A model generated the notes under the pieces. It was not told the DNA's origin. It saw nothing but the letters and a program-made list of their open reading frames with translations, and searched no databases. A DNA stretch of 64,000 nt, taken from contig CAVSGV010000005.1 in assembly GCA_963727815.1 (NCBI GenBank), positions 101,348 to 165,347 of the forward strand, read 5' to 3'. Below, one piece after another: positions 16,254 through 20,013 of this stretch. Every line of letters begins with the position of its first letter. Within the stretch, counting starts at the first letter, position 1. The position numbers and the translations under genes were made by a program. Source of the stretch: an uncultured bacterium. Its GTDB lineage: Bacteria; Margulisbacteria; WOR-1; CAVSGV01.

Positions 16254-16982
16254 ATGAAGCTTAATAAACTTATAATATCCTTGATGGTGCTGGCGGCGGT
16301 CTTTTCTTCCTCCGCTTATGCCGTTACCGTCAAGAATGACATCTCCAGCAGGATAACGAGCGCGATAATCCGATATCTTGTAAGCAAGGATGCTTCTTAT
16401 GAGGGCAAGAGGATCGAAGTAGAATACAAATACGCGGACAAGACATTCAATTCCCTGAAGGGCAGGAGCGGTACCGTGACCTTCGTGGTCGCGGAGTTGT
16501 ATCCGGATTTCAAACCGATAGGCAACATAATAATCCCCATACAGGTAGTGGTGGACGGCGAACCGAAAGAAAAATTGTTCATCAGGACAAAGGTGTCGGT
16601 ATATGACAATATCGTCATAGCTACAAAGCGCCTGAAGAGAGGCGACATAATAGGCACTACGGAAGCGGCCGTGCAGGTAAGGGACATTGCCACCTTGAAT
16701 TCGCAGGCCATAAAGGACATAAATATCGTTCTCGGGAAAGAAGCAAAGACTTTCATACCGATGGACAATCCGATTTACGAATACATGATCAAGGAAAAAC
16801 CCCTGATAAAGAAGAACGATGCGGTCACCATAAAGGCTTTCAATGATGACATCTCGGTGGAGGCCGACGGCATTGCGCTGGAGGACGGCCTGATGGGAGC
16901 GCAAATAAGAGTGAGGAATTCCCGCTCGGGGAAAGAGGTCATCGCGGTCATAACGGGCACGGGCGAGGTGACGGTAAAATGA
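16254..16982 (+). CDS. flgA: P-ring formation chaperone FlgA
   Basis: Signal peptide, SAF-like domain, G.ALEDG.MG.QIRVRNS.SGK.V.A. Confidence 0.88.
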
Positions 16983-17320
16983 TGAGGACAATGCTGAAGT
17001 CGAAACTTCACCGGCTGACGGTCACCGATACGAACGTGGACTACGCCGGCAGCATAACCATAGACAGGGCGCTTATCAAGGCGGCGGACATCCTGCCTGG
17101 CGAAAAGGTCCAGGTGGTGGACGTCAATAACGGCGCCAGGTTCGAGACATATGTGATAGAAGGCCGCGGAGGGGAAGTTTGCGTGAACGGCGCCGCGGCA
17201 AGACTGGCGAACAAGGGCGACAAGGTCATCGTGATAGCTTATGCGTTAGTCGACGACAAAGAAGCAAAAAAGCTGAAACCGAAGATCGTTCTCGTCAACG
17301 AAAGGAACAAGAAAAGATGA
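16979..17320 (+). CDS. panD: Aspartate 1-decarboxylase
   Basis: [38 protein letters not shown]...GDKVIV. Confidence 0.95.
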
Positions 17321-17950
17321 AGGCAAAATGTAAAATGAAAAGTGCAAATATGTTGTGCGCTACACGCGTCATAATAATGTTCCTCCTTATTTTTTCATTT
17401 TTCATTTTAAATTTTTCATTTGCTTTTGCGGATTCCATCTGGACCAGACTCAAGCACGTCGCCTTATTCGGTAAGCAAGTCTTTCAAAGTGGGGGATGTC
17501 GTTACGGTCCTGATAAATGAATCCACTTCAGCTGTGACGAAAGGCGAGACGGACACGAACGCGAACGATTCACTGGGGCTTGCTTTCAGTTCAAGCCTGG
17601 CTTCTTTTTATCATCCCAGCAAGAACGTTACCGGATCTGGCGGAAGCACTTATAAAGGCTCTGGCTCCACGACCAGGAGCAACAGCGTTACGGCAAAGGT
17701 TGCGTCCGTCGTCATAAAGGTGATGGCCAACGGGAATCTTTACATCGAGGGCGATCACAAAGTGGAAGTTAACGGCGAAACTCAGACGATATCGATATCC
17801 GGCATCATAAGACCGAAGGACGTAAGCCTTCAGAACACGATATTCTCTTATCAGGTGGCTGACGCGCAGGTTTCGGTGAAGGGGAAGGGAGTGGTCGGGG
17901 ACGCGGAAAATCCGGGATGGTTCACCCGCTTCTTCAACTGGATATTCTAA
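17317..17950 (+). CDS. flgH: Flagellar L-ring protein FlgH (frameshift near 17446; SPase I-type signal, no lipobox)
   Basis: AFA-DSIW then [57 protein letters not shown]. Confidence 0.9.
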
Positions 17951-18990
17951 TGGGAAATTTTAAATTTAAAATGAAAAGTGCAAAGTTGATGAGCGCTTCG
18001 CGCGTCATTATAATGTCTTTCCTTATTTTTTCATTTTTCCTTTTTAACTTTGCATTTGCCGCATCGCCGGCAGTAAGGCTTAAGGACATAGCGCACGTTC
18101 TGGAAGCCAGGGACAACCAGCTTATGGGATTCGGGCTCGTGGTGGGACTTAAGAACACGGGCGACACCATCCAGACCGGATTCACCAGGCAGGCGTTGAC
18201 AAATCTTCTCTCCAGAATGGGCATCGCTCCGCAGGACCAGGAATTCAAATCCCGCAACGTCGCGGCCGTAATGGTCACCGCGAAACTGCCTCCTTATGTT
18301 AGGGCAGGACAGAAGATCGATGTTACTGTATCTTCTCTCGGCGACGCGACATCGCTGATGGGAGGAACTCTCCTCATGACGCCGCTTCAGGGACCCGATG
18401 ACAACGTTTACGCTGTTGCGCAGGGGCCGGTCGCGCTGGGTATTTCGACAAGCGACATGGACGTTTCCGTCGTGGTGGAGAAAAGACAGACCGACGTCGG
18501 CCGCATAACAGGCGGCGGCATAGTTGAAAAAGACGTTCCTGTTTCCGTCGGCGACAATTTTATTTCCATAGTGCTGGATAATCCCGATTACACGACCGCA
18601 ACAAGGATCGTGAGCGCGATGAACGATGCCGGGATCTCCGCGAGGGCGAGGGACGCGGCAACCATCGTCGCGTCCATGGATTCTTCGGGAGACCAGGTGG
18701 CTTTCATTGCACGGGTCGAGAACCTCAGCATTGTTCCGGATACTGTGGCGAAGATCGTTATAAACGAACAGACAGGGGTCATCGTGATGGGAGAGAACGT
18801 GAGGATAGCCCCCGTGGCAGTTTCTCTTAGCGGCACAAATGTCACCGTCTCCACAATTGCGGGGGGCGCGACAATGTCTGATCTGGTCTCTTCGCTTAAC
18901 GCGATAGGCGTAAAGCCAGCCGACCTTGTGGCGATAATCCAGGCAATAAAATCTTCGGGCGCAATATCGGCAGACATAGAGGTGATGTGA
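17950..18990 (+). CDS. flgI: Flagellar P-ring protein FlgI
   Basis: RLKDIA...RDNQL.GFGLVVGL..TGD, NVAAVMVTA.LP, VSSLGDATSL.GG.LLMTPL.GPD..VYA.AQG. Confidence 0.93.
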   Translation: MGNFKFKMKSAKLMSASRVIIMSFLIFSFFLFNFAFAASPAVRLKDIAHVLEARDNQLMGFGLVVGLKNTGDTIQTGFTRQALTNLLSRMGIAPQDQEFKSRNVAAVMVTAKLPPYVRAGQKIDVTVSSLGDATSLMGGTLLMTPLQGPDDNVYAVAQGPVALGISTSDMDVSVVVEKRQTDVGRITGGGIVEKDVPVSVGDNFISIVLDNPDYTTATRIVSAMNDAGISARARDAATIVASMDSSGDQVAFIARVENLSIVPDTVAKIVINEQTGVIVMGENVRIAPVAVSLSGTNVTVSTIAGGATMSDLVSSLNAIGVKPADLVAIIQAIKSSGAISADIEVM

Positions 18991-19271
18991 TGGAACAGAT
19001 AACAGGAATAGATCCGCTTTACGCTATCGGCTCCAACATAAGCGTCAACAATAATGTGCGCACAAAGGCTGACGCGCAAAAGGAATTCGCGTCGGTTTTC
19101 GTGGCCCAGATATTGAAAGAGGTCTACAAGGGGCAGAGCGAGATGTTCGGCGAGGAAGGAAGCCTGGGGCTTTTTTCCGACAACCTTTATAACGATATCA
19201 TGATGTCCAAGATATCCAGCGAGATAGCTGGCGACAAATCGTTCGGATTTGAGAAATTGTTGATGCAATGA
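18987..19271 (+). CDS. Small FlgJ N-terminal (rod-binding)-like protein
   Basis: KEFASVFVAQILKEV..LFSDNLYND..SKISSE, GFEKLL; directly after flgI; no muramidase domain. Confidence 0.7.
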   Translation: MMEQITGIDPLYAIGSNISVNNNVRTKADAQKEFASVFVAQILKEVYKGQSEMFGEEGSLGLFSDNLYNDIMMSKISSEIAGDKSFGFEKLLMQ

Positions 19272-20013
19272 TGGCATTAAAGAAAAAAACAATGAAACCG
19301 ATAAAGACCGAAGAGGACATGCCGATAAAGATGGCGGAAATGTACATGCCCCTGGTGCATTCCATCGCGTCCATCGTTTCCAGCAAGGGTCTTCCTCCCA
19401 GCATAGATTACAACGACCTAGTGGCCGACGGCACCGTGGGGCTGATGAAGGCGTGGAAAAGTTTTGATAAGAACAGAGGAGTGAAGTTCGAGACGTACGC
19501 TTCTTACAGGATAAGGGGGGAGATACTCGACGGCCTGAAGAATTACAACCCGGTCCCTTACAGGGTCCAGGTAATGATAAGGGATGTTGCCAAGAACGGC
19601 TATTCCGCTCTCACAAAAAAAGGAGCAAAGGGAAAGGAAGAAGAGAGAAGTCATACGAAAAGAAAGAGATATCCGAAGAAGATTTCAAGAAAGCCGTAAC
19701 AAAGATAAGGAAGATAGTCTCCGCCTCCGCGCTCATGTATCTCATGTCGCTTGAATCCGCGCAGGATTCCGGCATGGAAATAAACGTGTCCGCCGAAAAA
19801 ACTCCCGCCGAAGAATTGGAATTCTCGGAACTGAGGTCCAGGCTCAAGAAGTCGCTGTCCGATCTTCCCGATACGGACCAGAGGGTCATAAGCCTTTTCT
19901 TTGACCAGGACCTTAGCCAGAAGGAGATCGCGTCCAAGCTGAAACTTTCCAGGAGCAAGGTCAACAGGATAATCGGCAAGACGGTGGTGTTCTTAAGGGA
20001 GAAGCTGAAGTAG
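19268..20013 (+). CDS. fliA: FliA/WhiG-like sigma factor (frameshift near 19650)
   Basis: Region 2 DLVADGTVGL.KAW..FD..RGVKFETYASYRIRGEILD; region 4 L..L....QRVISLFF..DLSQKEIA.KL.LSRSKV. Frames join as ...EEKKSYEKKEISEEDFKKAV... Confidence 0.8.

Follow-up and report, generated by a model that had tools for sequence, protein, structure and literature searches.

The window described here is the whole stretch of DNA that was analysed, 64,000 nucleotides (nt) of contig CAVSGV010000005.1 (assembly GCA_963727815.1, positions 101,348 to 165,347, forward strand) from an uncultured bacterium of the Margulisbacteria, lineage WOR-1. The genome is a 1.68-Mb metagenome-assembled genome (MAG) in six contigs and is approximately 70% complete; the window belongs to contig C5. 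In order along the window, it encodes flgA (16254-16982), panD, flgH, flgI (17950-18990), a small open reading frame (ORF) and fliA. The order panD-flgH-flgI is also found in the related genera G002-G005. The flgH start codon (ATG at 17317) overlaps the panD stop codon (ATGA), while the flgI start codon (ATG at 17950) overlaps the flgH stop codon (TAATG). A Shine-Dalgarno-like sequence, GAAAGGAA, is located 9 nt before the flgH ATG, and the flgH starts of relatives have the motif at equal spacing. The subject of this analysis is the leader-coding 5' end of flgH and of flgI, where a hairpin element built of 7-nt units (heptads) is found. These leaders have a GC content of 30-32%, as compared to 51-56% for the gene bodies. 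The features of the two genes, together with further copies of the element elsewhere in the genome, are listed in Table 1.

Table 1. Features of the flgH-flgI region (window positions) and other copies of the hairpin element (contig:position). A slash marks the predicted junction between leader and mature protein.
Feature	Position	Strand	Description
panD	16979..17320	+	Aspartate 1-decarboxylase; directly upstream of flgH; overlaps both neighbours (flgA, flgH)
flgH leader	17317..17430	+	38 codons
flgH element, A-rich heptad arm	17320..17351	+	Encodes Lys-rich n-region
Direct-repeat copy 1 (flgH 5' end)	17326..17423	+	98 nt
flgH element, GC-rich core mini-hairpin	17355..17370	+	gtgcgctacacgcgtc; encodes CATRV
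flgH element, T-rich heptad arm	17383..17423	+	TTTTCAT units; encodes Phe/Ile/Leu/Ser h-region and start of AFA cleavage motif
Frame break in flgH	17441..17449	+	ACCAGACTC; 9 nt, versus 8 nt in G002, between TGG and AAGCAC
FlgH mature body	17450..17950	+	Frame 2; Pfam PF02107, 1.7e-47; nearest homologue 77% identical
flgI leader	17950..18060	+	37 codons
flgI element, A-rich heptad arm	17951..17987	+	
Direct-repeat copy 2 (flgI 5' end)	17962..18059	+	98 nt; 85% identical to copy 1, ungapped
flgI element, GC-rich core	17991..18006	+	gagcgcttcgcgcgtc
flgI element, T-rich heptad arm	18019..18059	+	
FlgI mature protein	18061..18990	+	Pfam PF02119, 1.4e-98; N-terminus ASPAVRLKDIAHV, conserved class-wide
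Intergenic copy	C6:480907		Between dnaG and dGTPase gene
Intergenic copy	C1:123495		Between prs and miaB-like gene
Intergenic copy	C3:140131		Upstream of ribF
Intergenic copy	C3:291535		
Intergenic copy	C3:38517		
Intergenic copy	C3:335364		
Leader copy	C3:592385		311-aa protein without Pfam match; MMENSKDKMQSVKIMCASLLSARYFKILLLTFAFFIFTFESVYA/G
Leader copy	C3:574335		Lipoprotein, ...LLILLCGC
Leader copy	C6:171378		Wza-like Poly_export/SLBB protein
Leader copy	C6:90033		SBP_bac_5 protein (solute-binding)
Leader copy	C3:264981		Polysaccharide deacetylase (Polysacc_deac_1)
Leader copy	C1:153372		Amidase_3+AMIN amidase
Leader half copy	C6:74343		Big_5 lipoprotein

The 5' ends of flgH and flgI form a direct repeat, and this pair was the sole full-length match in a BLAST search of the whole genome (E-value: 2.4e-15). 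A preliminary description of the locus had called the two signal peptides near-identical. The leader is indeed shared and the peptides are as written there, but the term is too strong, as 20 of 30 aligned residues (67%) are identical. Assembly duplication was rejected as the source of the two copies because they differ at 15 positions.

Each copy is also an imperfect inverted repeat. The internal arms are 32 nt long with 81% complementarity (I2) and 29 nt long with 72% complementarity (I5), and both copies have the core gcgct(a/t)c(a/g)cgcgtc. The preliminary description was therefore correct about the inverted repeat with its gcgct(a/t)c(a/g)cgc core, and its assignment of the left arm to the Lys-rich n-region and the right arm to the Phe/Ile/Ser h-region is borne out by the coding of the arms. 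Because a Lys-rich stretch followed by a Phe-rich stretch automatically gives some A/T complementarity, arm pairing was compared to a null in which codons were shuffled inside each half, keeping the Lys-rich-then-Phe-rich order (1000 shuffles). Complementarity was above this null in both flgH (z=5.1, 0/1000) and flgI (z=3.1, 11/1000). All four arms have a period of 7 nt (lag-7 identity 0.63-0.69), and their identity at lag 3, where a coding signal is usually seen, ranks with the lowest (0.12-0.41). In RNA folding, each copy forms one long hairpin with a small GC hairpin at its tip. An intrinsic-terminator scan gave no match at either element, and a role for the two copies as bidirectional terminators was dropped on that basis. 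The Rfam scan of positions 16800-18600 returned nothing but a chance RNase_P fragment (E-value: 0.32). A near-consensus sigma-70-type sequence (TTGATG-17-TATAAT, 10/12) is located inside the flgI element at 17986-18014; the match is to the consensus only, and the AT richness of the repeat probably accounts for it.

The two copies belong to a dispersed family. An nhmmer search seeded with the flgH and flgI copies and iterated on the genome to convergence found 18 loci, and model R1, a sequence-only covariance model built from family copies, found approximately 14. Ten full-length copies align to a palindromic consensus of the form nAAATTCAAAATGTAAAATGAAAAGTGCAAAA-(variable centre, often a GC mini-hairpin)-TTATTTTTTCATTTTTCATTTTAAATTTTGAATTT, and the consensus across the family is likewise clearly palindromic (AAATTCAAAATGTAAAATGAAAAGTGCAAAA...TTATTTTTTCATTTTTCATTTTAAATTTTGAATTT). 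A second subfamily is built of GTCATTT units. Many loci were matched on both strands, as expected for palindromic elements. Inverted complementarity was above that of arm-preserving shuffles in all 18 loci (z 2.7-7.2). A heptad scan, which uses no sequence model and only the 7-nt period (threshold 19/28), detected 133 arrays in 85 loci versus 0 in locally shuffled sequence and recovered both arms of flgH and of flgI; at a stricter threshold (18/21), just 13 arrays and no pairs were obtained. With ends of the form AAATTCAAAA...TTTTGAATTT and approximately 15-18 dispersed copies in 1.68 Mb, the family has the terminal inverted repeats and copy number of a miniature inverted-repeat transposable element (MITE). 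No autonomous transposase partner was seen: the only gene found between such arms encodes PF05635, which is not a known transposase.

The copies are split approximately evenly between intergenic and signal-peptide-coding positions. As signal-peptide-coding sequence makes up 1-2% of the genome by our own estimate, about half of the copies fall in a small fraction of it. The exported proteins with copy-derived leaders, FlgH and FlgI included, are mutually unrelated. Of 41 related genomes, 30 have matches to model R1 and 11 have none, although each of those 11 must contain many signal-peptide genes; the FlgA leader in the same window is not matched either. R1 is thus not a general signal-peptide detector. 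In the relatives G006 and G017 (L124, L130, L132), hairpin copies of the same family adjoin tRNA genes, and two tandem copies in G006 flank a tRNA-like stretch.

FlgH was compared to its orthologues in five related genera (G002-G006) and to its 30 nearest homologues from a database of 5.8 billion proteins. FlgH has an ordinary leader of 20-25 residues in each of G002, G003, G004, G005 and G006 (for example, MKKMRVLFAILIATSLLTGTFSIAFA/DSIW). A conventional leader is also found in 30/30 of the nearest homologues, among which the best identity to this FlgH is just 77%. Because both sets have conventional leaders, the flgH hairpin leader is specific to this lineage. In most of the class, FlgI also has a short conventional leader before the conserved sequence (A)SPxVRxKDIAH. 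One type of flgI hairpin is common to G001, G002 and G005 (pairwise Smith-Waterman scores 109-141), a third type with a CTGCCTGCCGGCAGGCA centre is found in G004, and G003 has no hairpin. The flgI copy of this genome scores 121 to its own flgH copy, 54-59 to other copies in the same genome and 23-36 to the flgI hairpins of other genera. The N-termini are therefore not conserved in relatives, and an ancient shared signal peptide was rejected on this orthologue evidence.

Two other exported proteins show similar variation. For the Wza-like protein, the leader is conventional in G003 and G004, a TTTTCAT-type hairpin in this genome and a CTTAACT-type hairpin in G001. AmiC has hairpins with TTTGTCA units (this genome and G001), TTGGTCA units (G004) and TTTGGGA units (G002), and a conventional leader in G003. 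By these patterns at flgI, wza and amiC, hairpins repeatedly land, or are retained, at the 5' ends of genes for exported proteins.

The preliminary description mentioned similar short-period inverted repeats that flank four-helix-bundle genes in other bacteria, and this link holds here. PF05635 has ten matches in nine loci of this genome, and inverted 7-nt arrays bracket all nine. The array unit varies by locus (CAGTTGC, GAGATGN, ACAGTGA, AGGTTAC, AATGACA and others). The cassette at C3:72246-72723 (locus C3:72337) has ACAGTGA-type arms, and the downstream one contains the codons for the hydrophobic core of the leader of the following gene (MIKRFVFCLLLFTVNCSLFTCSYA/DGQGG). The arms of a decayed cassette at C3:125775-126091 share 33 nt (94% identity) and 24 nt (96% identity) with gene-less hairpins that form or precede the N-termini of the deacetylase, AmiC and PBP1A. 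In G002 (C99), two R1 half-matches flank a 128-codon PF05635 ORF (1.2e-19), and the arms of this cassette match the flgI hairpin of G002 itself over 38 nt (89% identity; E-value: 3e-9) and 26 nt (92% identity). The gene-bearing form with related arms is thus found at G002:C99, and that of the sister subfamily at C3:125775. By these shared arms, the leader hairpins are the gene-less counterpart of the cassettes, much as a MITE is to its autonomous element. The centre of the flgH and flgI copies is only approximately 30 nt and has no ORF, and these copies are thus gene-less derivatives of the PF05635 cassette form. A GC palindrome, CTGCCT(A/G)CCGGCAGGCAGG, is found in the heptad arms of one PF05635 cassette (C3:205329 flanks), and a similar palindrome is found in the centre of the G004 flgI hairpin (L002 1470-1500). 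This sequence may be a nested small repeat.

Both leaders have the properties predicted for Sec-type signal peptides cleaved by signal peptidase I. The n-regions each have a net charge of +5. The h-regions are uninterrupted over 16-18 residues, with mean Kyte-Doolittle values of 2.6 (the 18-residue region) and 2.4 (VIIMSFLIFSFFLFNF). The predicted cleavage sites are A-F-A/DSIW in FlgH and A-F-A/ASPAV in FlgI, while the orthologues have xAxA/DSIW and xxA/(A)SPxVRxKD, respectively. Cleavage after A-F-A would therefore release exactly the N-termini seen in orthologues. The FlgI leader is in frame with the mature protein. From the n/h/c rules and the conserved mature N-termini, these leaders would be translated, direct export and be cleaved. 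No Cys of a lipobox (L-x-x-C) is found at the FlgH leader/mature junction or in the 30 nearest homologues, which have AxA/DSIW throughout. The lack of a lipobox was correctly pointed out in the preliminary description, but because it extends to all of these homologues it characterises the clade and does not result from the element.

It is likely that the FlgH and FlgI leaders are copies of a dispersed heptad hairpin element that were co-opted as Sec signal peptides. The preliminary description had proposed such co-option of a small repeat, and the genome copies, the lineage-specific FlgH leader and the cassette link all support this. The proposed model builds on the observed repeat family, its hairpin and heptad structure, its coding context, the orthologue states and the match to cassette arms, and is as follows. 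The first approximately 110 nt of flgH and of flgI would each be a copy of the element, with an A-rich array of 7-nt units, a short variable centre (here the GC mini-hairpin) and a reverse-complementary T-rich array. The element itself would be the gene-less form of cassettes whose similar arms enclose a PF05635 four-helix-bundle gene. Read on the sense strand, the A arm would provide the ATG and the Lys/Asn/Ser codons of the positively charged n-region, the GC core would add Ala-Thr/Ser-Arg and the T arm would provide the Phe/Ile/Leu/Ser codons of the h-region. The end of the element (GCATTTGCC in flgI, GCTTTTGCG in flgH) would encode the A-F-A signal-peptidase-I site, with the conserved mature N-termini DSIW (FlgH) and ASPAVRLKD (FlgI) directly after it.

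The flgI hairpin is presumably old in this bacterial family and would have been replaced or re-acquired at least twice. The flgH hairpin would have arisen in this lineage only, displacing a conventional leader, with either the flgI copy or another member of the same active subfamily as its source. Because the palindrome reads as basic and then hydrophobic in either orientation, it would be unusually easy to co-opt. Copies may survive at leaders since sequence of this kind is acceptable there but at almost no other place in a coding region.

Alternatively, gene conversion or illegitimate recombination may have overwritten the flgH leader with that of flgI, located 636 bp downstream, and this step would have involved no element mobility. 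The exchange would be anchored by microhomology at ATGAAAA... and ...TTTGC(T/C). We consider this a serious possibility, although somewhat short of an even chance. The flgH and flgI copies are mutually closest (Smith-Waterman score 121, versus 54-66 to other copies; 85% identity) and share the centre GCGCT.C.CGCGTCAT.ATAATGT, which is not in other copies. At the 3' boundary, the native flgH leader end of relatives (TTTAGTTTTGCTTAT, SFSFAY) already resembles the element end. Remote copies at C3:592382 (E-value to the model: 5e-20) and C3:140130 nevertheless have the same core type, the flgH and flgI copies differ at 15% of positions and other exported-protein genes gained hairpins independently. 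For flgH alone, microhomology-mediated replacement from flgI seems as plausible as a fresh insertion.

The preliminary description overlooked a frame difference between leader and body in flgH. Frame 1 contains the leader and is open from 17317 until the stop at 17520, while the body is read in frame 2 from 17450, as placed by the Pfam FlgH match (1.7e-47) and by a tblastn match to the nearest homologue. In relatives, DSIW-x-x-x-S-(S/T)-SPYSVSK is read in a single frame. The extra base directly follows the DSIW codons, and deleting one base joins the leader and FlgH readings. The likeliest cause is probably an assembly indel; a real and very recent frameshift is a possible alternative. Programmed +1 frameshifting at ACC AGA CUC A was judged unlikely, as there is no slippery or stop-codon context. 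Similar breaks are seen nearby and in a relative. The fliA gene (sigma-28 type, window 19268-20013) has its region-2 ORF and region-4 ORF in different frames, with the break near 19624-19663 in an A/G-rich stretch, whereas the G001 orthologue is a single 248-aa ORF. At the flgI 5' end of G001 (L004 2440-2548), the sole ATG of the A arm is in a different frame from FlgI, which suggests a homopolymer indel in that assembly.

These breaks raise the question of whether flgH is a recent pseudogene, in which the element, recombination or a later mutation left a 1-nt frameshift in a decaying flagellar regulon. The flgH break is 10-18 nt past the predicted cleavage site, and fliA, 1.7 kb downstream, is likewise split by a frameshift. 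Such decay is rather unlikely, however, given that the 167-codon body after the break (17450-17950) is stop-free and 77% identical to the nearest homologue and that nothing interrupts the leader frame. The presence of several single-base breaks in a few kb is more in keeping with the indel errors of long-read MAGs, and the flgI of a relative has a similar problem in an A-run.

A primary function at the RNA level is less probable again. Under this explanation, the hairpins persist at the panD/flgH and flgH/flgI junctions because of a role in the mRNA, such as translational coupling via buried start codons or RNase III processing as in the 23S rRNA intervening sequence (IVS), and leader coding is secondary. 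Both hairpins do begin exactly at overlapping stop/start codons (ATGA, TAATG), have internal ATGs in the stem and, at flgI, keep their architecture although the sequence differs between genera; IVS stems of this element kind are also RNase III substrates in Coxiella (PMC4990558). Cleavage inside a leader would, however, destroy the message. In addition, G003 and most of the class have no hairpin at these junctions, and neither an Rfam match nor covariation support was found. Finally, the proposal that two ordinary signal peptides became alike through their dominant Lys (AAA) and Phe (TTT) codons, with no repeat element involved, is effectively refuted: some A/T complementarity is expected wherever a Phe-rich h-region follows a Lys-rich n-region, and the flgI leader still reaches -18.7 kcal/mol after dinucleotide shuffling, but this does not account for 85% nucleotide identity over 98 nt (E-value: 2.4e-15), lag-7 periodicity with lag 3 among the lowest lags, complementarity above the codon-shuffle null, equally good intergenic copies or the lack of matches in other leaders here, such as that of FlgA, and in 11 related genomes.

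Several points weigh against the reading of the two leaders as co-opted element copies. RNAalifold gave no consensus pairs or covariation support for the 10-copy alignment, because the heptads slip in register, and it was this failure that led to the sequence-only model. The folding energies of flgH (-27.3 kcal/mol, z=-3.3) and flgI (-22.7 kcal/mol, z=-1.2) have modest z-scores. No target-site duplications or precise empty sites were recognised, and mobility is thus deduced from the patchy distribution only; the hairpin replaces the old leader rather than simply interrupting it. A PF05635 cassette with the exact TTTTCAT-type arms of flgH and flgI was not found in this approximately 70%-complete genome. 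The flgH leader is out of frame with its body, and if the extra base is real, FlgH would not be exported via the hairpin leader. The predicted signal-peptide function depends on the n/h/c rules and the conserved mature N-termini, and the broader phenomenon considered below is deduced from sequence only.

The hairpin type at a given gene start varies between genomes: flgI has three types, and the heptad units of amiC and wza also differ. We tentatively suggest, at slightly less than an even chance, that signal peptides in the Margulisbacteria, and probably in other phyla, have a systematic and recurrent source in gene-less heptad hairpins that derive from IVS-type PF05635 cassettes, even at the core flagellar ring proteins, with the hairpin at any one gene start tracking the cassette arms of its own genome. 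If so, hairpins would be actively copied and would replace existing leaders, through hairpin-targeted insertion or through gene conversion, and this process is possibly guided by a four-helix-bundle protein that binds the 7-nt arrays.

Repeat-derived leaders on two core flagellar ring proteins are surprising, and this locus gives clean comparisons of the states before and after. The orthologues support a case in which selfish repeat DNA would have supplied a ready-made functional module, a Sec signal peptide, from an A-rich/T-rich palindrome that encodes 'Lys-rich then Phe-rich' on either strand. The element links the unexplained PF05635 '23S rRNA IVS protein' family, bacterial heptanucleotide arrays and the evolution of leader peptides. 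There are also practical consequences. With a GC content of 30% and many homopolymers, leaders of this kind are prone to frameshift errors in long-read MAGs. They also mislead start-codon calling and create spurious DNA similarity between unrelated genes.

In-frame palindromic elements and IVS-type cassettes are already known, and the present finding is a variant of these. No literature was found that links heptamer-armed PF05635 cassettes to gene-less hairpins or signal peptides, and a search for heptamer arms with four-helix-bundle genes, or for Margulisbacteria repeats, gave nothing beyond one Coxiella IVS paper and MITE reviews. The PF05635 family was first found in 23S rRNA intervening sequences, and IVSs with such an ORF are known from Coxiella burnetii and Leptospira. 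The Coxiella IVS is a hairpin with a 28-bp stem that is cut by RNase III, and its S23p (PF05635) ORF follows tandem GACAGAT heptamers (PMC4990558). The elements described here similarly combine an inverted-repeat hairpin with heptameric repeats beside a PF05635 ORF, the heptad arrays in this case enclosing the gene. Unlike the IVS, which is located in rRNA helix 45, the copies at flgH and flgI lack their own ORF and lie in mRNA coding sequence, where they would be read as part of the host protein. RNase III excision would be harmful at these positions.

A second parallel is found in the Cyanobacteria, the sister group of the Margulisbacteria. Short tandemly repeated repetitive (STRR) sequences are tandem heptanucleotide arrays of unknown function, and TTGGTCA is a classical cyanobacterial STRR unit. 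The G004 AmiC leader (L113) is built of TTGGTCA units and so resembles STRR sequences in its tandem 7-nt structure. In contrast, no description was found of STRR sequences as paired inverted arms or as signal-peptide coding.

Rickettsia palindromic elements (RPEs) add surface loops to cytoplasmic proteins. They occur both between genes and as in-frame insertions in conserved protein genes, which tolerate the added peptide (PMC2229807). The Margulisbacteria element is likewise a small palindromic repeat with both intergenic and in-frame copies. It differs from RPEs in that it replaces a functional module, the signal peptide, has arms made of 7-nt arrays and is linked to a gene-carrying cassette. 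A published precedent is a Yersinia palindromic sequence/RU-2 MITE fused to YPO1552, in which the translated MITE is reported to form part of a predicted signal peptide (Delihas 2007, as described in PMC2229807). In that account, a MITE-type sequence also contributes to the predicted signal peptide of an exported protein, but the Yersinia case is described for one orphan ORF only, of unknown function. The element described here is found at the leaders of at least eight known families of exported proteins, the flagellar P- and L-ring proteins among them, and the orthologues show the states both before and after acquisition.

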